A stretch of DNA of 64,000 nucleotides from Candidatus Eremiobacteria bacterium (GTDB taxonomy: Bacteria > Vulcanimicrobiota > Vulcanimicrobiia > Vulcanimicrobiales > Vulcanimicrobiaceae). The DNA lies in contig CAVTRC010000002.1 in NCBI GenBank assembly GCA_963737065.1, forward strand, positions 224,001 through 288,000, written 5' to 3'. The position numbers and the translations under genes were made by a program. This document shows positions 10,684-21,723 of this stretch, one piece after another. The notes below the pieces were generated by a model. It did no database searches. It was not told the DNA's origin and was given only the letters and a program-made list of their open reading frames with translations. Each line of letters begins with the position of its first letter. The first letter of the stretch is position 1.

Positions 10684-10750
10684 TCTTCAAAGGATGGCGT
10701 GAGGCGCGTTTGTGCCTTTCCGCATTTGCACTTCGTCTTGGGAGCTACGG

Positions 10751-11113
10751 ATGAGCAAGAGAGTCCTCATCGTCGACGATGCCGTCGTCATGCGGATGAT
10801 GATCAAAGGGATCCTGTCTAAGAACGGCTTTGATGTCGTCGGAGAGGCTCAAAACGGTGTTGAGGCGGTTGAGAAGTACAAGCATCTCCAGCCGGACCTC
10901 GTGACGATGGACATGGTCATGCCCGAAATGGACGGCATCGCGGCCGTCAAGCAAATCGTTGCATCGGATCCCAGCGCGAAGATTATCATGTGCACCTCGA
11001 TGGGCCAGCAGGCATTGGTCGTCGAGGCGATTCAAGCCGGCGCGAAATCGTTCATCACAAAACCGTTTCAGCCGCCAAAAATTCTCGAAACGATTCAGAA
11101 AGTGCTGTCATGA
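10751..11113 (+). CDS. cheY: Chemotaxis response regulator CheY (Bacillus/Thermotoga type)
   Basis: VLIVDDA, PDLVTMD.VMPEMDG, MCTSMGQQ, FITKPF; ATG 10751 after GGAG. Confidence 0.93.
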   Translation: MSKRVLIVDDAVVMRMMIKGILSKNGFDVVGEAQNGVEAVEKYKHLQPDLVTMDMVMPEMDGIAAVKQIVASDPSAKIIMCTSMGQQALVVEAIQAGAKSFITKPFQPPKILETIQKVLS

Positions 11114-11718
11114 GCGCGAGCATGCAACTCAACGATCTGCAAAAGGACGCGCTCAAGGAAGTGGGCAACATCGGCGCGGGCCATGCAGCTACGGCGCTGT
11201 CGCAACTGCTCAATACGAAGATCAACTTGAGCGAACCGCGCATCGATGTGATCAAGTTCCGCGATCTCGCATCGCGCGTCGGTCATGAAAACCGCACGGT
11301 CGCGGCGCTCCACATGTACGTCCGCGGCGAAGCACCGGGTCAGATGGTGGTGCTGTTCGACCGCGAACAGGCGCTCGATTTCGTCAGCCAGTTCTTGCAT
11401 CGCGTGATCGGCGACATACAGATCTTCGATTCGATCGCCGATTCGACGTTGAAAGAACTCGGCAACATCATCGCCGGGTCGTATCTGACGGCGATCATTC
11501 AGTTGACCGGATCGAATCTGTTGCCGTCGGTTCCGACGCTTTCATACGGGACGGTGCAGGCCGCGTTTCGCACCCTGATGTCGATTCTTCCCGATCAAGA
11601 CGTATTCTTGATCGAGTCGGCTTTCTTGGATAAAGAAAAGGAAGTCGCCGGACAGTTCATTCTGATCCCGGAGACTGGATCGCTCGGGCCGCTGCTCTCC
11701 GTCTTCGGCGTCGAGTAA
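11110..11718 (+). CDS. cheC: CheY-P phosphatase CheC
   Basis: DALKEVGNIGAGHAATALSQL and second site KELGNI; ATGA overlap with cheY stop. Confidence 0.93.
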   Translation: MSASMQLNDLQKDALKEVGNIGAGHAATALSQLLNTKINLSEPRIDVIKFRDLASRVGHENRTVAALHMYVRGEAPGQMVVLFDREQALDFVSQFLHRVIGDIQIFDSIADSTLKELGNIIAGSYLTAIIQLTGSNLLPSVPTLSYGTVQAAFRTLMSILPDQDVFLIESAFLDKEKEVAGQFILIPETGSLGPLLSVFGVE

Positions 11719-11766
11719 CGCTCGCGCCGCGTTTATGGCCGGTCGAGACGCGTTGGTTCGGGGGCC

Positions 11767-11797
11767 GCGCAAAAACCACATCGTGTGGTTTTTGCGC
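11767..11797. repeat. Perfect 14-bp inverted repeat in cheC-cheA intergenic region
   Basis: GCGCAAAAACCACA-tcg-TGTGGTTTTTGCGC. Confidence 0.9.
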
Positions 11798-11990
11798 TTA
11801 CGTGATTTTTGCGCAGAACGACCGCCGATGCGTCAAAGCACGACGCGGTCCCGATGGGACAAGGCTAACGACGACATGTTCATTAGGCGCGCCCTAGGGG
11901 AATCAATGCCGGCGATGGTGCTTTTGCGCGCCATGGTTTGGGGGCCCCACGAAGTGGGGGGCGCGCAGCCTGGGGCGGAGCGCCTTTGAA

Positions 11991-13943
11991 ATGTCGGACG
12001 AGCTGTTTAATCGCGAGGAGTTCATCTCGTACTTCCGGGATGAGGCGGACGAGTTACTGCAGCAGATCGATGCGGATTTGTTGCGGCTTGAAGAGGGCGT
12101 GAATTCGGGTTCGACCGATCCCGAGATCATCAATTCGCTGTTTCGTGCACTGCATACCGTGAAGGGGTCTTCCGGTATGCTCGGCTTTGTTGACGTTCAG
12201 GGGCTCGCGCACAAGCTGGAAAATTTGTGCGATCTGCTTCGGAGAGACCGGATGCCGCTCTCCGAGAGTGCGGTCGACATTCTTTTTACGGGTCGTGATT
12301 TACTCACGGGGCTCGTGCAGGCGGCGATTGGACAAGAACAAGCGCCGGAGGGCGTTGTCGAGTACATCGACAAGCTCGATACCTTTACGTCGATTTACGA
12401 AGAGACGTCGCACGTCATCGATGGGCGAACCGGTCCGGAAGAGTCCTTTGACGAGGCGGCAGCGCACGAGGAACAGGCAACTGCGACGGACGTGGCGGCC
12501 TTCGAGGCGGAAGTAGAGCGCCTGTTGGCGCAAGCGCATTTGGCGAATGGCGCTGCACCGAGCGCGTCCGCAGAACCGCTTGCGGTTCCGGCTTTCGAAC
12601 GGCCGAATGCGGCTGCGGCTCCGGCTCAAATGCCTGCCGTGCCGGCGCCTGCGCAAAAAGCGGCTGCGAACGGCGATCACAAGCGCTCGTCGATTCATCA
12701 GACGATTCGTGTCGATATCGAACGTCTCGATGCGCTCTTGAATCTCGTTGGCGAGCTCGTAATCAATCGCACGCGTATTTCGGATATCGCCAATACGCTC
12801 GAGCGATTGATGAACGATAGATCTAGCGCTGCAGGAGGCGGCGCTCAAGCTATTATCGCGCCCCTTGCGAAGGAACTCGCTGATTCAGCGGCGTTGCTCG
12901 CGCGCACGACGAACGAAATTCAAGAGTCGATCATGAAGGTGCGCATGGTGCCGATCGGTCAAGTCTTCGACCGGTTTCCGCGCCTCGTGCGCGACGTGGC
13001 GAAGGCGCGCGGCAAGGAAGTGCAACTCGTGATCTCCGGCGCGGAAACGGATCTCGACAAGACGATCGTCGATGAAGTCGGCGAGCCGCTCATGCATCTG
13101 CTGCGCAACAACGTCGATCACGGCATCGAAGCACCCGACGAACGGGAACGTCTGGGCAAACCACGAGCCGGCACGATATCGCTCAATGCCTATCACGAAG
13201 GCAATCAGATCATCATCGAAGTGGCCGACGACGGCGGCGGAATCAACCTTGAAAAAGTGCGCGCGCGCGGCGTGAAACAAGGACTCATTTCCGGCGACGA
13301 CCGGTTGACCGATCGGGAAATCGTCGACCTGATCTTCACGCCGGGCTTTTCCACCGCCGACGTGGTGTCCGACGTCAGCGGACGCGGCGTGGGAATGGAT
13401 GTAGTCAAGCGGAACATCTCGCGCCTAAAAGGCGTCTTCGACGTCGAAACGGCCGCAGGTCAAGGGACACGCTTCACGATCAAGCTTCCGCTGACGCTTG
13501 CAATCATACAGGCGCTGCTTGTGCGCGTCGCCGACGAGCTCTACGCGATTCCGCTCGATTCCGTGATCGAATCGCAGCGCGTGGAAATGGCCGACGTGCG
13601 TACGGTACATCGCAACGAAGTCATCACGCTGCGCGGACAAGTCGTGCCGCTCGTGCGAATTGCGGAACTGTTCGAACTGGGCGGGCGGCGCGATCCGGAC
13701 AAGGTGATGATCGTGATCGTTGGCTTGCAAGGACGCCAAGTCGGGCTCGTCGTCGACTCGTTTGAAGGCGAACAAGAGATCGTCATCAAGCCGCTCTCGG
13801 ACGTCGTCGGTCGCATTCCCGGCATCTCGGGTGCGACGATCCTCGGCAACGGTTCGATTTCGCTCATCATCGACGTTCATTCGCTCGTTAGTGAAGCTCA
13901 CGTCGGCGGCAAGGTCGCGCGCGTGGAGTTTTCGGGAGTTTAG
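11991..13943 (+). CDS. cheA: Chemotaxis histidine kinase CheA
   Basis: Hpt FRALHTVKG, dimerisation TIRVDIERLD.L.NLVGELVI, HLLRN.VDHGIE, DDGGG, SGRGVGMDVV, C-terminal CheW domain. Confidence 0.97.
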   Translation: MSDELFNREEFISYFRDEADELLQQIDADLLRLEEGVNSGSTDPEIINSLFRALHTVKGSSGMLGFVDVQGLAHKLENLCDLLRRDRMPLSESAVDILFTGRDLLTGLVQAAIGQEQAPEGVVEYIDKLDTFTSIYEETSHVIDGRTGPEESFDEAAAHEEQATATDVAAFEAEVERLLAQAHLANGAAPSASAEPLAVPAFERPNAAAAPAQMPAVPAPAQKAAANGDHKRSSIHQTIRVDIERLDALLNLVGELVINRTRISDIANTLERLMNDRSSAAGGGAQAIIAPLAKELADSAALLARTTNEIQESIMKVRMVPIGQVFDRFPRLVRDVAKARGKEVQLVISGAETDLDKTIVDEVGEPLMHLLRNNVDHGIEAPDERERLGKPRAGTISLNAYHEGNQIIIEVADDGGGINLEKVRARGVKQGLISGDDRLTDREIVDLIFTPGFSTADVVSDVSGRGVGMDVVKRNISRLKGVFDVETAAGQGTRFTIKLPLTLAIIQALLVRVADELYAIPLDSVIESQRVEMADVRTVHRNEVITLRGQVVPLVRIAELFELGGRRDPDKVMIVIVGLQGRQVGLVVDSFEGEQEIVIKPLSDVVGRIPGISGATILGNGSISLIIDVHSLVSEAHVGGKVARVEFSGV

Positions 13944-13949
13944 TCAGCC

Positions 13950-14462
13950 ATGGCAGACGTCAAACAGGAGAACAAACAGCAGCTCTCCGGCGAAGTGCTC
14001 CAAGTCGTCTCGTTCAAGGTCGCGACCGAAGAGTACGGCGTTGACATTTCGCAAGTTCAAGAAATCATTCGTATGGTGGAGATCACGCACGTCCCGCGCG
14101 CGCCGCATTTCATGGAAGGCGTGATCAACCTGCGCGGCCAGTTGATTCCCATTATCGACCTGCGCACGCGCTTCGGCATGGCACGCATCGACGCAACGAA
14201 GAGCACGCGCATCGTCGTTACCGAGATCGGTAGCAAGCGGATCGGCATGGTCGTCGACAGCGTAAGCGAAGTCCTCAACCTCCCGATGGAAAACGTCGAG
14301 GACGCGCCGGAGATGATTGCCGGAGTCGGCACCGAGTACATCCAAGGGGTCGGGAAGATGGGCGAGCGGCTCATCATCATGCTCGACTTGACGATGGTCA
14401 TTTCGGGCGACGAGAAGCGCCAGCTCGAGCATGCCGGCGACCAAGCCGCAGTCGCCGTTTAA
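13950..14462 (+). CDS. cheW: Chemotaxis adaptor CheW
   Basis: VQEII...IT.VP.AP...EGVINLRG...P.IDLR.RF. Confidence 0.96.
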   Translation: MADVKQENKQQLSGEVLQVVSFKVATEEYGVDISQVQEIIRMVEITHVPRAPHFMEGVINLRGQLIPIIDLRTRFGMARIDATKSTRIVVTEIGSKRIGMVVDSVSEVLNLPMENVEDAPEMIAGVGTEYIQGVGKMGERLIIMLDLTMVISGDEKRQLEHAGDQAAVAV

Positions 14463-14463
14463 C

Positions 14464-14526
14464 CTCTTAAATTATTAGTTGACAACTATCGGACCTAATG
14501 CTATCGTACTCTTAAAGAATTAGGAG
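14464..14526 (+). promoter_or_regulatory. Sigma70 promoter of blaI-like operon flanked by two operator dyads
   Basis: TTGACA(14479-84)-N17-TATCGT(14502-07) with extended TG; dyads CTCTTAA-N4-TTAGTTG (14464-81) and CTCTTAA-N4-TTAGGAG (14509-26). Confidence 0.75.
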
Positions 14527-14540
14527 CGAGGTAGCATAGA

Positions 14541-14924
14541 TTGGCCCGAAAGAAGAGTCCGACCCTCACCGAAGGCGAGCTGCGCATCATGGAAGTGCTG
14601 TGGCGCCTTGGACGGGGGACCGTCGCTGAAGTCTCAGAAGCAATGCCGCCGCCGCCGGTGGCCTACAATACCGTTCTCACGACGCTACGGATCCTCGAAC
14701 AGAAGGGCCACGTCGCCCATGAGGAAGCGGGTCGTGCCTACATGTACTACCCGCTGATTGCGCGCGAAGCCGCCGCGCAGTCGGCCGTCAAACAAGTTGT
14801 TTCAAAATTTTTTGGAAACAATGCGGGCGCGTTAGCGCTACGTTTAATTGAGAACGAACGGCCGTCGGACGACGAACTCGACCGTTTGCGCTCGTTGATC
14901 GAACGGTACGACGAAGGGAAGTAA
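14541..14924 (+). CDS. BlaI/MecI/CopY family transcriptional repressor
   Basis: LTEGELRIMEVLW, AYNTVLT.L.ILE.KG, GRAY.Y.P, FFG; upstream of an M56 peptidase. Confidence 0.93.
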   Translation: MARKKSPTLTEGELRIMEVLWRLGRGTVAEVSEAMPPPPVAYNTVLTTLRILEQKGHVAHEEAGRAYMYYPLIAREAAAQSAVKQVVSKFFGNNAGALALRLIENERPSDDELDRLRSLIERYDEGK

Positions 14925-14927
14925 CGC

Positions 14928-16967
14928 ATGGCTCACCTCGAGCTGCTCGGGCCTGTAGCGCGGATCGGACTAGCGATTCTCCTCAACGGCCTGTGGCAAG
15001 GCGCGCTCATCGCGTTGCTGACATGGGTCGCACTCTATGTTTTTCGCAGTGCGAATGCGACAACGCGATATGCGGTATGGTCGCTCGCCCTATTGGCGAT
15101 CTTCATCGTCCCCGTTGTCACGAGCCTCTCGCGCGTCAGTGTGGAAACTCCGCCGGTAACGACGCACGCAACGAGCGGCGCATCAACGACAACTGCGCAA
15201 GCTGCACGCGTCGCGCGCACCGTCAGCGCGGCACCCGAGACGCGCGTTGCGCCCGTTGCAGCACCGGCGGCAGCGCCGCACGTCGCCGTGCCGTCATTCC
15301 GCTTGCGCGTTCCCGGGCTCGTTGCCCCCGTACTCTTCGCTTTGTGGGGAGTCGCGACGCTCGTCATTATCGTTCGGTTGATCGTCGCGTTTGTGGCACT
15401 CGAACGGCTCAAGCACGATTCACTGCCGCTTTCCGTGCAGTATCGCGACTCAATGCCGCGATGGATGAACGCCCTCAAAGGATCGCGCGACGTGCGGATC
15501 TGCGTTTCCGATGCCATTGAAGTGCCGATCGCGGTCGGACTCTTCGACTCGATGGTGCTCCTGCCGTCGCACCTCGTACACTCGCTCGAGCCGTCGGAGA
15601 TCGATCAAATCAGCCTGCACGAACTCGGGCATTTGCTGCGCGGCGACGATTGGACGAATGCGATTCAACGCATTGCATCCGCGCTCTTGTTTTTCAATCC
15701 CGCGGTGTGGTTTATCTCGCGCCAAATGGACGTGGAACGCGAAGTCGCGTGCGACGACTATGTGCTGCAGTTGACCGGGCAAGTCCGTCCGTATGCGTTC
15801 TGTTTGACGAAGATGGCGGAAATGACCGCCTGGCCGCACCGGCCGATGCCCGCGCCGGGTGTCTTCGCAACGCGCAAGAACATTTCGATTCGCATCGAGC
15901 GCTTGTTGCGCACGGGACGCGCGATCGGCTCGAGCATTGCGCCGAGCGTTGCGGGGAGTTTCGTCGCGGTGCTCGTGGCGGTGTTTATCGTGCTGCGGCT
16001 CATGACGCCGAGCATCGCGTTTACCGCACCCGCCGCGCCCGACCCCGCAGCCTCACCGTCGCCGGTGCGGCCGATGGCGAAGGTTGCTGCTCCGCGAAAG
16101 ATTGCGGTGAAAGTCGAGGCGCCCCGTACCGCGTCCACGACCGCGCCCGTGACAACGGTTGCGCGGGTACAAGCGTTGCCGGCGCCCGTGCAGGCGACGC
16201 CTGCGCCGGCCGCTCCGGTGCATCGCACGACGCACAAGATGCCGCAGATCGCGACGCTGCCGCACATGATCGCGAGGGTTCAGAGCAGCATTCCCAGTTC
16301 GGGAACGCTTGCCGCAAGCGTGCAGAACGCCCTAAGCAACGCCGGCGTTGCGGGATCGCACGCAAAGAACAGCGCCGGATGCACCGGCTGCAACTTCTCC
16401 GATGCAAATCTGGCGGGACGTGACTTCTCGAATCGTTCGATGGAAGGCGCGAACTTCAAGAGTGCAAATCTCGAAGGCGCGCGGTTCGATCACGCGCAGC
16501 TCACAGGCGCGAACTTCGACGGTGCCGATCTTCGGAACGCCTCGTTCCGCGGCGCCGAGCTGCAAGGTTGTAACATGCGCGCTACTCGTCTCGAAGGCGC
16601 GAACTTCGACGGCGCGCACTTGACCGGTTGCAATATCGATGTGAGCAAATTGGCACCGACGCAGGCACGCACCGTCCTCAACAGTTGCGAAGGCTGCAAC
16701 TTTGCTCACGTTAATCTCTACGGCATGGATCTGCACGGCATTCACGTCACCGGCGTCAATTTCGCCGGCGCCGATTTGCGCAACACGAATCTCTCCGCCG
16801 CAGATCTCACCGGGGCCAATCTCGCCGGTGCGAAACTTGCCGGCGCCAACCTCTACAACGCCGACCTCACCGGCTGCAACCTCCACGGCGCCGATCTGCG
16901 CGGCGTCGACCTGTCGCACACGTCGCTCACCGGCGCGAACATGGGCGACGCGATCTGGAAAGACTGA
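14928..16967 (+). CDS. M56 (BlaR1/MecR1-like) membrane metallopeptidase with C-terminal pentapeptide-repeat domain
   Basis: LWQG...A..RYAVW, HELGH zinc motif, FFNPAVW...EREVACDD, RIERLL; TM helix, Pro/Ala linker, then (A/S)(D/N)(L/F)xx repeats. Confidence 0.9.
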   Translation: MAHLELLGPVARIGLAILLNGLWQGALIALLTWVALYVFRSANATTRYAVWSLALLAIFIVPVVTSLSRVSVETPPVTTHATSGASTTTAQAARVARTVSAAPETRVAPVAAPAAAPHVAVPSFRLRVPGLVAPVLFALWGVATLVIIVRLIVAFVALERLKHDSLPLSVQYRDSMPRWMNALKGSRDVRICVSDAIEVPIAVGLFDSMVLLPSHLVHSLEPSEIDQISLHELGHLLRGDDWTNAIQRIASALLFFNPAVWFISRQMDVEREVACDDYVLQLTGQVRPYAFCLTKMAEMTAWPHRPMPAPGVFATRKNISIRIERLLRTGRAIGSSIAPSVAGSFVAVLVAVFIVLRLMTPSIAFTAPAAPDPAASPSPVRPMAKVAAPRKIAVKVEAPRTASTTAPVTTVARVQALPAPVQATPAPAAPVHRTTHKMPQIATLPHMIARVQSSIPSSGTLAASVQNALSNAGVAGSHAKNSAGCTGCNFSDANLAGRDFSNRSMEGANFKSANLEGARFDHAQLTGANFDGADLRNASFRGAELQGCNMRATRLEGANFDGAHLTGCNIDVSKLAPTQARTVLNSCEGCNFAHVNLYGMDLHGIHVTGVNFAGADLRNTNLSAADLTGANLAGAKLAGANLYNADLTGCNLHGADLRGVDLSHTSLTGANMGDAIWKD

Positions 16968-16984
16968 AGCGAGGAGCAAAACCG

Positions 16985-17773
16985 ATGAAACATCTTGCGC
17001 TTGCGCTTTGCGCGCTGGCTTTGTTATCGTACGCGCTCACCGGCGCCGTCCAGGCGAAACCCACGAACTGCATGGGCTGCAATTTCGCAAGCGCCGATCT
17101 GCAAGGACGCGACTTTTCGAACGTCGACTACGTCGGCGCGAACTTCACCGGCGCGAACCTTCGCAACGCAAACTTCAGCGGCTCCAACCTCACCGGCGCG
17201 AACTTCCGCGATGCCGACTTACGCGGAATAAACTTCACGAACGTCGACTGCACGGGTTGTGCCTTTGGCGGCGCGCGCTTGAGCGGTGCGCAATTCAAAG
17301 GGGCGCGATTGACCGGCGCAAATCTGAGCGGTGCGCTCCAAGGACTCAGCGATCAGGAATTGCGTGACATCCTCAACAACTGCACCGGTTGCAACCTGCG
17401 AGGCGCGCAATTGCGCGGGCACGACCTTTCAAACATCGAGGTGACCGGCGCAAATATGGAGGATGTCGATGCATCTTCTGCGCGGTTCACGAATGCACGG
17501 CTCATCGGCGCGAATTTTCGGGATGCGAACTTGCGCAATGCCGATTTTACCAACGCCGCGCTCTGCTGGCACAATACGTTCAACAGCGGCGGAACGGTGG
17601 CCAGGCGCGAGACCGAATGCGTGCGTCTTTCCGGCGCCGACGTACACGGCGCAAAATTTACCGGCGTCCGTCTCTGCGACAGCGATCGCGGTTCGTGGAC
17701 GTGTACTCCCGCCGACGCGTCGACGATTCGCCGGTACAGCGACTCATCGCTCGACGGAGCGGTTCTACAGTAA
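16985..17773 (+). CDS. Secreted pentapeptide-repeat protein
   Basis: Signal peptide (..AVQA), A(D/N)(L/F)xx repeats with CxGC caps; GAGGAG RBS. Confidence 0.88.
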   Translation: MKHLALALCALALLSYALTGAVQAKPTNCMGCNFASADLQGRDFSNVDYVGANFTGANLRNANFSGSNLTGANFRDADLRGINFTNVDCTGCAFGGARLSGAQFKGARLTGANLSGALQGLSDQELRDILNNCTGCNLRGAQLRGHDLSNIEVTGANMEDVDASSARFTNARLIGANFRDANLRNADFTNAALCWHNTFNSGGTVARRETECVRLSGADVHGAKFTGVRLCDSDRGSWTCTPADASTIRRYSDSSLDGAVLQ

Positions 17774-17815
17774 CATGCAGGCGCGGTCTTGCGTTCACGT
17801 AATAGAATGCAGACC

Positions 17816-18676
17816 ATGCGCACTCCCCTCGCGGCGGCACTCATAGGTGCCTTCCTCGCTTGTATTGCTGCCGCTCCGGCGGCCCCGAAACCGTCTCCTT
17901 CACCCGCGCCTACGCGAACCGCTCCGCCGGAGATCTACCATACGGTCGTGCATCCGGTATGCAGCGCGCTTGCGGCGAAGATTCGTCCTGCGATTGGAAT
18001 GCTACTCGAAAACGATCAAATCATCGGCAAGAGCCCGGGGATGTTCAAAGAGTACGGCATGGCGCAATTCAACCAGAGCGACGCGCAAAAGAGCATGACC
18101 GTTTTGCACATGGAAAACTTGGTCACGCCGCTTGCCAACAACGTCCTCGCGATTCAAAAAATGCTCGAAGATCCGTCGGTCTTCCCGCCGAAGGCGCGCG
18201 ATCAGGAAGATCAGCGCACGTTGGATCTCAAGAACAAGCTGCTCCAGTCGCTTGCCGACCAGCAAGCTGCACTCGACATCATCAACGGGTTCGTCGAAAC
18301 CCAGCAATTGGCCGACATGCAGCACGAAGGTTTCGGCTACATCTATGCGATTGCCGGCCGCGAGCAAAGGACGAACACGGGCGGCGTGGATCCGCTGCAC
18401 AACATCTCCCCGACGGCCGATCCGCTTCATCCGCAACCGTTCGACGATACCGTGATCAACGCGGGCTTGCCGACGAATCCGTACGAAATCGATCTCACGC
18501 GCGTCCCGGGATTGACACTCGGCTACAATCCGGTGAAGGATTTGCAACAGGCCGTCGAGTGGGCGCAAAGCGACGGTCAGAAACATGAAGACACCCTTGC
18601 AAAGACGGTCGTGCAAACCGTGAAATTGTGCGGCGGTCAAACAGGCGCAGGCGCTTCTCCGTCCCCGAAACCGTAA
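17816..18676 (+). CDS. Hypothetical secreted protein
   Basis: Signal peptide, PSPSPAPT linker, helical body with two distant Cys; TAGAAT 7 nt before ATG 17816. Confidence 0.7.
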   Translation: MRTPLAAALIGAFLACIAAAPAAPKPSPSPAPTRTAPPEIYHTVVHPVCSALAAKIRPAIGMLLENDQIIGKSPGMFKEYGMAQFNQSDAQKSMTVLHMENLVTPLANNVLAIQKMLEDPSVFPPKARDQEDQRTLDLKNKLLQSLADQQAALDIINGFVETQQLADMQHEGFGYIYAIAGREQRTNTGGVDPLHNISPTADPLHPQPFDDTVINAGLPTNPYEIDLTRVPGLTLGYNPVKDLQQAVEWAQSDGQKHEDTLAKTVVQTVKLCGGQTGAGASPSPKP

Positions 18677-19095
18677 CCCAGTCCCGTAAAGCGCATCAAC
18701 CCTTCGAACGGACCGTAGCTCGCGAAGGCATCCCGCCACAACGCGTGCGCGCGCGAAAGTGCATCGTCGCGTTCGTTCACGATCCGTCGCGTCGTGAGTG
18801 CCAAGCCTGAAACGGTTGCGAGCAACAGGTCACGATCGCGCCAATTGCCGAGCGCCTCTTGCAGTTGCGAAAGGCGGCTTGCGGCTTGGAGCAGCGACGG
18901 TTCCTTCGGCGTGAAGCGTTCGAGCGCGTAGCGCAATCGCGCGCATGCGATGCGAAAGTCATGCACCTCGCGCGCGCGGCGCGTCTGCAGTGCGGGTGCG
19001 AGTGTCAATAGCTCCGCAAAGCGAACGATTGCGATGCGGCGCATCGCATCATCGATGCCGCAGGCAACCGTCAGATCGATGTTGCGGGCCTTCAT
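18637..19095 (-). CDS. Half-CHAD domain protein (C-terminal-type half)
   Basis: VHDFRIACARLRYALE.F...LQEALG.W.D.D; ATG overlaps the stop of the upstream half-CHAD gene (ATGA). Confidence 0.75.
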   Translation of the reverse strand: MKARNIDLTVACGIDDAMRRIAIVRFAELLTLAPALQTRRAREVHDFRIACARLRYALERFTPKEPSLLQAASRLSQLQEALGNWRDRDLLLATVSGLALTTRRIVNERDDALSRAHALWRDAFASYGPFEGLMRFTGLGYGFGDGEAPAPV

Positions 19096-19475
19096 ACGGT
19101 ATACCGCAATCCGGTAAGCAAACGGCGGACGCGCGAAAAACAGGCGCGTTCGCGCGCGCAAAGTTCGGATAAGGTCGTACGCGCATCGCGCCGTTCGCGC
19201 GTATCGAGCGCCGAGCGCAACGTCTCGCGCAACACCGCGGCATCCCGCGCATCACTCGTGAGATCGATCAACCGGCGCAGACGTTTGAACCGCCGCGGCC
19301 GCAGGATGTCGCGGAAATCTTTGAAGAGCGAGCGCAGGCGACGCGCTGCCGTACGGAGCTCATGAAGACGCTTGGTGGACGGCCGTTTCAAAAAGCGCCG
19401 CCGTGCCTTCATAAAGACGCGGACCTCCGCTGCACCGAGGGTTTTCGCCCATGCAATGACGCGATCGTCCGCCAT
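19092..19475 (-). CDS. Half-CHAD domain protein (N-terminal-type half)
   Basis: LHELRTAARRLRSLF..F...ARD..V motif; Arg-rich. Confidence 0.75.
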   Translation of the reverse strand: MADDRVIAWAKTLGAAEVRVFMKARRRFLKRPSTKRLHELRTAARRLRSLFKDFRDILRPRRFKRLRRLIDLTSDARDAAVLRETLRSALDTRERRDARTTLSELCARERACFSRVRRLLTGLRYTV

Positions 19476-19518
19476 TATGCGGTTCAAAATTCTGCTCTTG
19501 AACGGTGATCCCCGGCGC

Positions 19519-19547
19519 TTGACATCGAACATATGTTCGATTAGGAT
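19519..19547 (+). promoter_or_regulatory. Sigma70 promoter of imuA with a perfect LexA (SOS) box filling the spacer
   Basis: TTGACA(19519-24)-TCGAACATATGTTCGAT-TAGGAT(19542-47); matches the Firmicutes/Actinobacteria GAAC-N4-GTTC SOS box. Confidence 0.92.
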
Positions 19548-19555
19548 GATCACCC

Positions 19556-20257
19556 ATGCTTCCCGCTACCGCCTTCCACGACCGCCGCAACCAGCTCTTC
19601 GAAGAGCTCAAAGAGCGTCTTCACGCGGCGCCGGGGGCGGTCGGCGTGGATGTCGATCGCCTCATTACGAGCGGGATCGCACCACTCGATTGTCTCCTAG
19701 GCGGCGGCTTTCCACTTGGATCGCTCGTGACGCTCGAGGGGCTGGGCAGTGCCGGTCGATGGAGCATCGCTGCGGCGCTGCTTGCCCAGGTGACACGCCG
19801 AAGCCTCGGCGCCGTTATCGACGACGGTGAACTGTATCCGCCCGCATTGGAAGATGCCGGCGTCCGTCTCGACCGCTTGCTGGTTATTCCCGCAAAAACG
19901 CCGGTGGGCATTGCCCGGGCCGTCGATGTGATCTTGCGCTCGCGCGCTGCTCGCGTCATTGTCATGCGTGCTCCGGCGTTACGTGCGGCTATGTGGACTC
20001 GTCTTGCAACCCTCGCTCATCGAGCGGGATCCGTCCTCGTCGTGATCGCCGGCCGCGCGGGTACAGAACTCGCCGGCGTGGCGACCGTTCGCCTGGGATG
20101 CATCTTCGAACGCGCGGTGATGCGCGGCTCGCGCGGGCTCTGGGGGTGTTTTTCCGGATTTACGCTGCGTGCGGAACTGCGCAAACACAAAGCCGCGCGG
20201 AGAGCCGGGGGAGCCGTTTCGCTTCGTTCAGCCTTTCTTAAACCCGTGGGCGCATGA
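19556..20257 (+). CDS. imuA: ImuA-like RecA-fold protein (degenerate Walker A)
   Basis: ITSGIAPLD.LLGGGFP.GSLV.L.G; GSAGRWS in place of GxxGKT; YPPAL..AGV.LDRLLV; first gene of the mutagenesis cassette. Confidence 0.8.
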   Translation: MLPATAFHDRRNQLFEELKERLHAAPGAVGVDVDRLITSGIAPLDCLLGGGFPLGSLVTLEGLGSAGRWSIAAALLAQVTRRSLGAVIDDGELYPPALEDAGVRLDRLLVIPAKTPVGIARAVDVILRSRAARVIVMRAPALRAAMWTRLATLAHRAGSVLVVIAGRAGTELAGVATVRLGCIFERAVMRGSRGLWGCFSGFTLRAELRKHKAARRAGGAVSLRSAFLKPVGA

Positions 20258-21723
20258 ATCGCATGAATGAGGAAGTGGCGATGCTGATCTGCTTGCGCGT
20301 TCCCGACTATCCGTTGGCGGTTGCCCTCGGCGGCGCTCGCGTCTGCGAGGACGTTCCGTTGCTCGTCGCCGACCGGTTCGATCGCGGACATGTTATCGCG
20401 CTTGACGATCGTGCACGCGAATGCGGTGCGCGTGCTGGGCAAACGGTGACGCAAGCCGCAGCCGTTGCACCCAATGCGCGTGTCGCCGTCCACGATGCGG
20501 TTCGCGCGCGAGCGGTATGGAACGACGTGCTCGATGCGCTCGATGCGGTAACGCCGCTGATCGACGACGTGCGCGAAGGTATCGCGTTTCTCGACATGCG
20601 CGGGATCGCCGGATCGTTTAACGATTGGGTCGTGCAGATTCATAGCATTCTCGATCGCTTCGATCTGCCGATTCGCACGGGTGCCGGTCCCAACCGGTTT
20701 TGCGCGTATGCAGCAAGTTGGATTGGCGATGCAACCGCGATCGAACCGGGAGAGGAGGCGTCGCGGTTGGCGCCGTTGCCGCTCGACGTGCTCGATGTCG
20801 ATCCGCATGCGCACGAGCGATTGCGTTTACTCGGCCTCTCGACGCTTGGAGAACTTGCGCGCTTGCCGCACGGACCGTTCGTACGCCGCTTCGGACGCGC
20901 CGCGGCGCAGTGGCATGAGTGGGCGCGCGGCATCGACCGCACGCCGTTCATTCCGCGCAGCCATGCGGTAGCGATCGAAGCGTCGATGTTTGGTGAAGGG
21001 TCGGCGGAGAGCGAAGAGGCGGTGCTCTTCGCGATGCGCGTGCTGCTCTCTCGGATTTGCCATGATTTGGAACGGTGCGGCAAACGCGCAAGCGCGCTCG
21101 ATCTCGAAATCGAACTGGAGAACGGACACAACGAACGCCTGGAAATTCTCCTTGCGGCGCCGACTGCGAACGACCGCGCAATGCTCGACGTCGTGCGAGC
21201 TAAAATGGAAGGGCTGACGTTCGATGCGCCGCTCTGCGGACTGCGGCTACGCGCGCTCCGCTTAGAAGAGGGAGGCGAAGCGCTGCCGCTCGTGCGCAAC
21301 GACGATATCGACGTCCAAAACGTTGCCGTCGTCCTCGCGCGTCTGGAAGCGCTGCTCGGTGAACCGGTTCGTCGCGCGCGCACGCGCGCCGCGTATCCCG
21401 TCGAAGAACGCTTCACCTACGAACCGTTTACCGTTCCGAAACTACGAGAAGCGTATTCAGCATTGGTAGTAAACGAAAGCGCGGCCGTACCGCAATTGCG
21501 GCTCATGGACGTAACGGAGGTCGACGTGTCGGTTGCGCGCGGGGAGCCGTCTGTTATCAACGGACACGCGGTCGTTGAATGTGCCGGCCCGTGGCGGATC
21601 GACGAAGCATGGTTCACATCGCCGGTGACGCGGGACGAATACGACGTTGTTCTTGACGACGGCAGCGTGCGGCGTATCTACCGCCAAGGCAATCACTGGT
21701 ATCTGCGGGGCTCGTATGATTGA
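20254..21723 (+). CDS. imuB: ImuB, catalytically inactive Y-family polymerase
   Basis: Y-family-like N-terminus lacking catalytic acidic motifs, LGL.TLGELARLP..F.RRFG, C-terminal GPW.....W....RD.Y....L.G.YD. Confidence 0.88.
   Translation: MNRMNEEVAMLICLRVPDYPLAVALGGARVCEDVPLLVADRFDRGHVIALDDRARECGARAGQTVTQAAAVAPNARVAVHDAVRARAVWNDVLDALDAVTPLIDDVREGIAFLDMRGIAGSFNDWVVQIHSILDRFDLPIRTGAGPNRFCAYAASWIGDATAIEPGEEASRLAPLPLDVLDVDPHAHERLRLLGLSTLGELARLPHGPFVRRFGRAAAQWHEWARGIDRTPFIPRSHAVAIEASMFGEGSAESEEAVLFAMRVLLSRICHDLERCGKRASALDLEIELENGHNERLEILLAAPTANDRAMLDVVRAKMEGLTFDAPLCGLRLRALRLEEGGEALPLVRNDDIDVQNVAVVLARLEALLGEPVRRARTRAAYPVEERFTYEPFTVPKLREAYSALVVNESAAVPQLRLMDVTEVDVSVARGEPSVINGHAVVECAGPWRIDEAWFTSPVTRDEYDVVLDDGSVRRIYRQGNHWYLRGSYD

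Follow-up and report, generated by a model that had tools for sequence, protein, structure and literature searches.

A BlaI/M56 operon with a pentapeptide-repeat ectodomain and an exported pentapeptide paralog in an uncultured Candidatus Eremiobacteria: an apparent switch of the BlaIR family

Gene organisation at the locus

The sequence analysed here, referred to as the window, is a stretch of 64,000 nucleotides (contig CAVTRC010000002.1, positions 224,001 to 288,000 of the forward strand, assembly GCA_963737065.1) from an uncultured soil bacterium of the Candidatus Eremiobacteria. The genome is 3.08 Mb, in 2 contigs, and is 95% complete. The window contains an operon at positions 14464-18676 (+), which consists of a promoter with putative operators followed by four co-oriented open reading frames (ORFs). 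These encode a BlaI-type repressor, an M56 protease fused to a pentapeptide-repeat domain, a separate exported pentapeptide-repeat protein (PRP) and a lipoprotein-like protein. The gaps between the four ORFs are 3, 17 and 15 nt. The features are as follows.

14464..14481, +, putative operator dyad O1 (CTCTTAAATTATTAGTTG); overlaps the -35 box; 27.0 bits against a position weight matrix (PWM); same place in 20/20 related loci
14479..14507, +, sigma-70-like promoter: TTGACA, 17 nt spacer, TATCGT, extended TG; 10/12 matches; TTGACA kept upstream in 20 loci
14509..14526, +, putative operator dyad O2 (CTCTTAAAGAATTAGGAG); just 3' of the -10 box, 45 bp from O1; PWM 25.2 bits
14541..14924, +, BlaI/MecI-family winged-helix repressor, 127 aa; PF03965; alignment to MecI
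14928..16967, +, 679-aa M56-PRP protein, whole ORF; Pfam PF05569 and PF00805
14928..16004, +, M56 protease part: transmembrane (TM) helices 1-3, cytoplasmic catalytic domain and TM4; PF05569; alignment to BlaR1
15618-15632, +, HELGH motif, within the M56 part
15741-15755, +, EVACD motif, within the M56 part
15948-16004, +, TM4 of the M56 protein, from hydropathy
16005..16370, +, predicted extracytoplasmic Pro/Ala-rich stalk, residues 360-481, from sequence composition; length differs among homologs
16371..16964, +, pentapeptide-repeat ectodomain, residues 482-679: CTGC, solenoid, short helix, CEGC, solenoid; PF00805
16985..17773, +, exported PRP paralog, 262 aa; PF00805, AlphaFold2 (AF2) and Foldseek
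17789..18676, +, lipoprotein-like ORF, 295 aa, with a FLAC lipobox-like sequence; no family match

An initial annotation, made from the sequence alone, had reported the first three ORFs (BlaI of 127 aa, M56-PRP of 679 aa and PRP of 262 aa, all on the + strand), and these are present where it placed them. The extent that it gave, 14464..17773, holds for this three-gene core but not for the full unit, to which the fourth co-oriented ORF adds. A GAGGAG ribosome site precedes the 262-aa PRP gene, which is the third ORF. The 295-aa product has no Pfam or NCBIfam match, and its Atlas scores are at most 0.76.

Our preferred reading, to which we assign a probability of roughly one half, is that the operon is an autoregulated BlaI/BlaR1-family (BlaIR) switch based on regulated proteolysis, in which a PRP β-helix on a Pro/Ala stalk of about 120 residues acts as the sensor and the exported PRPs act as accessory decoys.

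The repressor, its putative operators and a candidate five-promoter regulon

The 127-aa ORF was annotated from the outset as a BlaI repressor, and this is borne out by its match to Pfam Penicillinase_R (PF03965), which scores 104.6 bits (cut-off 22.6) over profile positions 1-114 of 115. Residues 8-121 align to MecI (1sd6). The protein misses the NCBIfam equivalog cut-offs for BlaI_of_BCL (49.4 vs 180 bits), MecI (26.3 vs 250) and CopY_TcrY (51.1 vs 121.95).

When the upstream regions of 20 related loci were aligned, an 18-bp dyad, CTnnTAA-N4-TTAnnAG, was found twice, about 45 bp apart. In these loci the first dyad overlaps the -35 box and the second follows closely on the -10 box. Two dyads of at least 15 bits, 44-46 bp apart, are present in 19/20 loci, and the twentieth has one dyad and a variant. 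No dyad of at least 15 bits is internal to any of the 20 loci scanned, beyond the promoter region. The position of the dyads supports autoregulation by BlaI through two putative operators at its own promoter.

When the whole 3.08-Mb genome was scanned with the PWM, 10 sites scored at least 18.6 bits, the next best being 12.8 bits, and five shuffled genomes gave 0-2 sites of at least 18 bits each. The ten genome sites form five pairs, and every pair is placed at a promoter.

Pair 1: window 14464/14509, +, promoter of the BlaI-M56-PRP operon
Pair 2: second blaI-M56 operon, contig C2:472425-475603 (L042), with CTACTAA-N4-TTAGTAG
Pair 3: unlinked exported PRP, contig C1; dyads 18 and 63 nt 5' of the start, the -35 box being overlapped likewise
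Pair 4: gene for a 686-aa protein, contig C1:1844389-1846528 (L041)
Pair 5: 64-aa ORF, contig C1:2166314-2166593 (L044), with 56-bp spacing

In 5/5 other genomes the unlinked PRP likewise has its dyad pair upstream. The 64-aa ORF has a hydrophobic N-terminus and has homologs with the dyad in genomes G003 and G001; as judged by eye, it adjoins an apparent tRNA gene. A search with the pattern TAANNNNWTAGTTGACA found the same five promoters in G003 and four of the five in G001, and the control search with the reversed pattern gave 0 matches in all five genomes. In a further genome, G019, the 686-aa gene and blaI-M56-PRP are divergent, with one perfect palindrome, TGTCAACTAATATATTAGTTGACA, between them (contig C4, around 904917-904940; L060/L063), a layout that recalls blaZ / blaR1-blaI. 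The window's genome also encodes a third BlaI, paired with an M56-TonB_C protein (contig C1:2144327-2145945; L045), for which the best promoter dyad scores 12.1 bits and is not strong.

The M56 protease and its ectodomain

Peptidase_M56 (PF05569) matches residues 25-324 of the 679-aa protein (117.8 bits, cut-off 31, E 6.9e-34). HELGH is found at residues 231-235 and EVACD at residues 272-276; HEXXH and EXXXD are listed as BlaR1 motifs in the available portion of the PvmSR preprint (bioRxiv 10.64898/2026.08.03.742534). An ungapped alignment pairs residues 137-282 with residues 107-252 of S. aureus BlaR1 (PDB 8exp, E 1.6e-8), so that H231-E232-x-x-H235 falls on BlaR1 H201-E202-x-x-H205 and E272 falls on E242. 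H231, E232, H235, E272 and D276 are invariant in 64 homologs. The NCBIfam model blaR1_generic, for which the cut-off is 400 bits, gives 94.5 bits, and the match covers only profile positions 23-328 of 585. On these profile matches the protein is classified in Peptidase M56 but not as a BlaR1/MecR1 proper, having no penicillin-binding sensor.

Hydropathy places the TM helices at residues 13-31, 49-67, 131-149 and 341-359. Basic residues are frequent in the TM3-TM4 loop (21 K+R), and there is no K or R in the first 15 residues past TM4. The 110 residues past TM4 are Pro/Ala-rich, and the length of the stalk varies among homologs (the alignment has 951 columns for the 679-aa query). In BlaR1 the C-terminal sensor lies outside the cytoplasm. 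Homology to BlaR1, together with the hydropathy and the charge bias, therefore supports an extracytoplasmic location for the stalk and the PRP ectodomain. Omp85 and LpxC are encoded in the genome, which indicates a diderm cell, and 'exported' is consequently used here to mean at least periplasmic.

The initial annotation had described an M56 protease with an intact HELGH whose last TM helix leads into a Pro/Ala stalk and then a pentapeptide solenoid, and had proposed a check on the compartment of the repeats. Both parts of the description agree with the present analysis, and the compartment favoured for the repeats is the extracytoplasmic one.

The sensor and the exported protein are paralogs

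The Pentapeptide family (PF00805) matches the sensor with E 3.4e-64 and 212 bits, in 8 stretches, and the exported PRP with E 2.1e-40 and 136 bits. BLASTP aligns the two solenoids with 46% identity over 166 aa (E 7e-41), colinear through a break that is not made of repeats, as the initial annotation had proposed. Raw similarity between PRPs is however unspecific. At E<=0.001 the exported PRP has matches in 102,765 representative proteins, and giant PRPs unrelated to it are still 34-41% identical. The search of representative proteins was swamped by giant multi-repeat proteins, and paralogy was judged on non-repeat features and on trees.

A CxGC motif opens each half of the solenoid. Residues C485, C488, C587, G589 and C590 are invariant in 64 sensors, as are C29, G31 and C32 in 22 exported PRPs. 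The spacing from CxGC to CxGC is 102 residues in every sensor with both motifs vs 104-105 in the exported class. Both classes have a short helix between the solenoid halves (residues 123-130 in the AF2 model of the exported PRP), with the residues R127/R581 and L130/L584 of this break kept in both. The AF2 model has a predicted local distance difference test (pLDDT) score of 89.6 and regular short strands, and its top Foldseek matches are all PRPs. The N-terminus resembles a signal peptide, being hydrophobic over residues 4-22 with pLDDT<50 over residues 1-22, and this agrees with the earlier description of a secreted pentapeptide protein.

The exported class ends in a Cys-rich β-hairpin/helix tail, in which C194, C212, C231 and C240 are invariant. 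This tail is absent from the window's own sensor. The M56 proteins of a sister family, f3, have 808-913 aa, and their ectodomain continues into a Cys-rich tail of the exported class: the tail of the exported PRP aligns with the C-terminus of the f3 M56 proteins with 46% identity over 72 aa (E 5e-20), with 4 Cys aligned. By this alignment, the exported PRP is homologous to an M56 ectodomain over its whole mature length. The shared non-repeat features exceed chance, and it is on these, and not on raw identity, that the paralogy of sensor and exported PRP is based. The earlier expectation that the two solenoids would be more alike than unrelated PRPs is borne out by the CxGC motifs and the helix, and not by percentage identity.

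The available portion of PMC8145042 describes a Cys39-Cys42 'disulfide bracket' in the cyanobacterial PRP Rfr23. By analogy the CxGC pairs may be the same device, which would fit an oxidising compartment. This bears on a quite different reading, that the operon is a Qnr/MfpA-like, gyrase-protecting resistance module under BlaI control. Qnr, MfpA and AlbG are among the fold matches, and NCBIfam gives matches to Qnr (65.2 bits, cut-off 240) and to MfpA (53.9 bits, cut-off 360), both far under their cut-offs. Both PRPs are nevertheless predicted to lie outside the cytoplasm, where the invariant CxGC pairs would also place them, and their net charge is only -2 to -10. We give this reading next to no credence, and it was rejected on the grounds of compartment and of scores under the family cut-offs.

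Conservation across the phylum

The 120 best database clusters all combine PF05569 with PF00805, and where named they are called only 'pentapeptide repeat-containing protein'. About 78/251 genomes of the phylum have a single-frame match over both domains among the matches listed (75 in f1 and 3 in f3), and the other families of the phylum have weak M56 matches only, again among the matches listed. Unpublished genomes enter the 251-genome and f3 tallies as denominators only, and no locus, alignment or tree row comes from them. A census was made of 80 species-representative loci of the Eremiobacterota/Vulcanimicrobiota, all from metagenome-assembled genomes, a few of which are under other phylum labels.

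BlaI upstream: 80/80 loci
PRP domain in the M56 reading frame: 71/80; the rest split or cut by contig ends
Separate downstream gene with the exported-class tail: 59/80; 14 without, 7 not assessable (59/73 assessable)
686-aa homolog downstream, same strand: 59/80
686-aa homolog upstream, divergent: 3
686-aa homolog not within the flank: 10; not assessable: 8 (62/72 assessable linked)
blaI, M56-PRP, exported PRP and 686-aa gene in order: 51/80
295-aa ORF homolog downstream: 24/80

In the commonest arrangement the operon ends with the 686-aa gene. The triplet of blaI, M56-PRP and secreted PRP, which the initial annotation had suggested checking for conservation, is found to be conserved, with BlaI in all 80 loci and the exported PRP in 59. 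The bla-like logic suggested for the circuit is likewise supported by the intact catalytic motifs, the constant presence of BlaI upstream and the paired dyads at the promoter.

These data also bear on the reading that there is no signalling, the M56 protein being a housekeeping protease with structural repeats, BlaI a plain autoregulator and the gene order historical. The surfaces of the sensors are indeed variable. This reading would leave unaccounted for a BlaI upstream in every locus, an invariant catalytic site and a shared operator regulon, and according to the available portion of the CenIR preprint (bioRxiv 10.64898/2026.04.08.717257) 96% of M56 proteins have a BlaI no more than 5 genes away. 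We consider it very improbable.

In some loci (L030 in G012, L031 in G011, L072, L106, L120, L139 and L145) the M56 frame is short, or the M56 part and the PRP are read in separate or overlapping frames, which may reflect frameshifts, pseudogenes or errors of assembly. If a PRP were made on its own from such a split frame, it would be without a signal peptide.

An unlinked third protein and the history of the PRP classes

There are only three PRP genes in the genome. The third is unlinked, on contig C1, and encodes a protein of 188 aa with a signal peptide; in sister genomes this class is 233-236 aa long, with the same break and CTGC motif. Two trees were made, the first with 42 PRP domains and 197 columns, and the second with 45 rows and 234 columns after addition of three f3 sensors. 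Every fetched row was kept, and two outgroup PRPs form long branches.

In the 42-domain tree the sensors form one group (94/90) and the adjacent exported PRPs another (73/68), with the unlinked class sister to the sensors (99/97). The 45-row tree groups the f1 sensors (99/94) and the f3 sensors (100/100), and places them as (f3 sensors, (unlinked, f1 sensors)) with support of 90/83; the adjacent exported class is unresolved at the base of the tree. In neither tree is a sensor grouped with its own genome's exported PRP. The idea that sensor and exported PRP evolved in concert was rejected, since the classes are separate in both trees. The topologies indicate that the PRP classes are old. The most plausible account of the tail common to the f3 sensors and the adjacent class is that it is ancestral and was lost later in the f1 sensors and the unlinked class.

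The initial annotation had taken the sensor to be a paralog of the adjacent effector. Paralogy is upheld by CxGC, the trees and the tail, but the closest paralog is the unlinked PRP, which has an operator pair of its own.

A further possibility suggested by these relationships is that the exported PRP is a co-sensor, or half of a split sensor: it would bind the M56 ectodomain solenoid to solenoid, and the protease would read its presence, absence or modification. The M56-PRP and exported PRP genes are adjacent in 59/80 loci, there are matching sub-clades in the sensor and adjacent exported classes (for example, L026 and L029 pair in both), and in f3 the exported-class tail is physically part of the ectodomain. 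Against this, the five genomes tested that are without the adjacent gene have no other PRP and yet have an intact-looking sensor, and of the two exported paralogs it is the unlinked one that is closer to the sensor. We regard a co-sensor as unlikely. Prediction of the complex between ectodomain residues 466-679 and the mature exported PRP gave ipSAE 0.01/0.00, which speaks neither for nor against binding.

The 686-residue protein

In the window's genome the 686-aa gene lies behind a dyad pair of its own; most relatives have it at the end of the M56-PRP operon. The comparison indicates that in the window's genus it was relocated together with its dyad pair. The earlier three-gene membership is thus right in linking the exported PRP but not complete, since the 686-aa gene, unseen in that annotation, is linked in 62/72 assessable loci, vs 59/73 for the PRP.

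The genome's own copy scores 11.8 bits for DUF5916, below the cut-off, while homologs 68-69% identical pass the cut-offs for CBM9_1 (27.3 vs 23.4 bits) and DUF5916 (25.1 vs 22.6). Atlas clusters for this protein score 0.98-0.99, with CBM9_1/DUF5916 in 14-33% of members (DUF5916 in 19-33%). The best 120 clusters are 65-87% identical to it, and it is therefore highly conserved. A profile search of the PDB gave 0 matches, and NCBIfam gave none. DUF5916 proteins are probably outer-membrane barrels. The literature searched contained no mention of DUF5916.

A role for this protein at the centre of the system is conceivable. In a cell-surface signalling arrangement the stalk would let the PRP domain extend to the outer membrane, much as TonB_C does in M56-TonB_C proteins, and there the domain would report the state or occupancy of the 686-aa protein, with the exported PRPs as modulators. 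The linkage of the gene, downstream or divergent, in 62 assessable loci points in this direction, as do the dyad pair retained by the relocated gene and the CBM9_1 and DUF5916 matches of close homologs. Moreover M56-TonB_C is the second commonest M56 architecture according to the available portion of the CenIR preprint (bioRxiv 10.64898/2026.04.08.717257), and one is found in this genome. The protein has no PDB or NCBIfam match, however, this genome's copy has no evident signal peptide, and co-regulation is no proof of contact. We think such an arrangement unlikely.

Genomic neighbourhood

A chemotaxis cluster (CheY, CheC/CheX, CheA, CheW) occupies window 10712-14462 (+) and ends 78 nt before blaI; CheW 5' of blaI is syntenic in many related loci. 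The 3' boundary of the operon is a convergent CHAD gene. Here, at window 18637-19553 (-), two overlapping ORFs of 174 and 153 aa match CHAD profile positions 154-225 and 13-122 of 228, and they are probably one CHAD gene with a frameshift. At window 19556-21723 (+) a RecA-fold ORF of 233 aa, whose Pfam score is under the cut-off, shares 4 nt with a 489-aa impB/mucB/samB (Y-family polymerase) ORF, a pair which we take to resemble an ImuA/ImuB-type mutagenesis cassette. PADLOC found no defence-system match at the locus, and only a marginal Csa3-like winged helix-turn-helix match for BlaI. A look-up of sequencing runs covering 14464-18676 listed none.

Proposed mechanism

The layout of the operon, its conservation, the set of promoters with dyads and the paralogy are shown by sequence. 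By analogy with BlaR1/BlaI, we propose that a signal at the PRP ectodomain would activate the cytoplasmic M56 domain, that the active domain would cleave BlaI, and that the dyads would then be vacated, derepressing the operon and the other promoters that carry dyads. The signal would more plausibly be an envelope-borne macromolecule, either protein or polymer, than a small molecule, because PRPs bind proteins and polymers, the stalk could span the periplasm, and one of the regulated products has a domain of carbohydrate-binding-like type. PRP solenoids serve as binding surfaces for gyrase in Qnr/MfpA and for a neurotoxin in SV2, as described in the available portion of PMC8145042. The exported PRPs, being duplicates of the ectodomain, would bind the same ligand as inducible periplasmic decoys or neutralisers, and in doing so would both protect the cell and damp the signal by negative feedback. 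They would be accessory, the core consisting of BlaI, M56-PRP and the 686-aa protein.

Several observations weigh against this switch-and-decoy scheme. The scissile bond of S. aureus BlaI/MecI is N101-F102, and the aligned positions of this repressor are R101-L102, not N-F, so that its cleavage specificity may differ from that of MecI/BlaI. Three BlaI paralogs are encoded in the genome, and their recognition helices are almost the same; the two besides the BlaI of the operon are 58% and 53% identical to it. The assignment of promoters to repressors is consequently not fixed, cross-regulation among the three paralogs and the dyad pairs is possible, and the half-site variants (CTCTTAA vs CTACTAA) gave no clean promoter assignment among the three. 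The exported PRP is absent from 14/73 assessable loci, and in 5/5 tested genomes without an adjacent PRP (completeness 89-97%) the sensor is the only PRP, from which it follows that titration by a soluble copy, the step suggested in the initial annotation, is not obligatory and is not the core function. The called start of this genome's 686-aa copy has no signal peptide, although many homologs have one, and the position of the promoter leaves no space for a longer N-terminus. Finally, the exposed residues of sensor and exported PRP are variable, with only D43/D499, R80/R536 and R127/R581 in common, and a per-column comparison of exposed residues between the sensor and exported classes found no shared conserved face. 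Since exposed residues vary in both classes, they do not discriminate between a decoy and a co-sensor.

A second occurrence of the same design is found within this genome. In the second blaI-M56 operon (pair 2 above) the ectodomain consists of repeats of about 30 residues with no Pfam family, and it is homologous to an exported 262-aa protein encoded directly downstream (30% over 174 aa, E 2e-22). The triplet and its dyads are kept in 6/6 relatives examined, one of which has a single dyad of at least 15 bits. Because the design appears twice in one genome with unrelated ectodomains, we keep open a wider reading. Here receptor plus decoy would be a general design, in which an M56 ectodomain is duplicated as inducible periplasmic paralogs that bind the same envelope ligand; in the present case the PRP would read an envelope polymer or protein linked to the conserved CBM9/DUF5916-like protein, a putative outer-membrane protein. 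We offer this generalisation tentatively, as less probable than not by a wide measure.

Relation to known systems

The preferred reading, a BlaIR-family switch with a PRP sensor, follows the known BlaI-BlaR1-BlaZ and MecI-MecR1-MecA systems (S. aureus / Bacillus licheniformis) in several respects. These are the PF03965 winged-helix repressor; a four-TM M56 zinc protease with HEXXH/EXXXD in a cytoplasmic loop and a sensor past the last TM helix, as in BlaR1/MecR1; autoregulation via two promoter dyads; and a sensor that shares ancestry with the regulated exported protein. It differs in that a PRP β-helix on a long Pro/Ala stalk replaces the penicillin-binding domain, and in that the outputs are PRPs and a CBM9/DUF5916-like protein, with no β-lactamase or penicillin-binding protein. 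It has R-L at the MecI cleavage position, and its operator half-sites are not TACA/TGTA, which is the type found in bla/mec operators.

The atypical BlaIR systems (CenIR of C. difficile, PvmSR of P. aeruginosa, and BlaIR of M. tuberculosis / M. abscessus) also combine BlaI with an M56 protein without a transpeptidase-type sensor. In the available portions of the sources their ectodomains are short, disordered or absent, and a paralogous exported copy is not described for them. The CenIR preprint (bioRxiv 10.64898/2026.04.08.717257) counts, in its available portion, 254 M56 architectures, of which the β-lactam type makes up about 6%; a PRP ectodomain is not among the architectures named there, which are only those with at least 100 entries. 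The M56-TonB_C proteins, one of which here has its own BlaI, resemble M56-PRP in having a Pro-rich, periplasm-spanning linker and a C-terminal protein-interaction domain. In M56-PRP that domain is instead a PRP solenoid, and an outer-membrane partner is hypothetical.

The initial annotation had held that characterised PRPs are cytoplasmic DNA mimics. This does not hold for all of them: Rfr32 and Rfr23 (Cyanothece), At2g44920 (Arabidopsis thylakoid lumen) and the luminal domain of SV2 are lumenal or exported PRPs with solved structures (PMC8145042, available portion), and the PRPs described here have sequence and fold matches to 2o6w, 2f3l/2g0y and 3n90. Those proteins, unlike M56-PRP, are not fused to a protease and are not part of a regulatory circuit; Rfr32, Rfr23 and At2g44920 are free-standing, and SV2 is a toxin receptor.

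The arrangement had been thought to be undescribed, and we found no published description of it. Searches for M56/BlaR1 with pentapeptide repeats, or for Eremiobacterota pentapeptide, gave no relevant description in the literature searched, whose coverage leaves out subscription journals. The operon is real and conserved, and as a probable switch of the BlaIR family with a PRP sensor it is apparently undescribed within that literature.

What is of most interest is the recurring design of a sensor with an exported paralog, together with a small regulon defined by operators. The function of almost all extracytoplasmic PRPs is unknown, according to the available portion of PMC8145042, and the module joins in one place two problems, namely the signals of non-β-lactam BlaR-like proteins and the roles of extracytoplasmic PRPs. 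It does so in a testable form, with a defined promoter and operators, a five-promoter regulon, and a sensor whose soluble paralogs could be purified to serve as bait; and its conservation extends over at least 80 species of a phylum that has hardly been studied by experiment. If the receptor-plus-decoy design is true, it would provide the first defined role for extracytoplasmic PRPs. If the paralogy of sensor and output is general, it could help to guess the outputs of many orphan BlaIR systems and, in time, their ligands.

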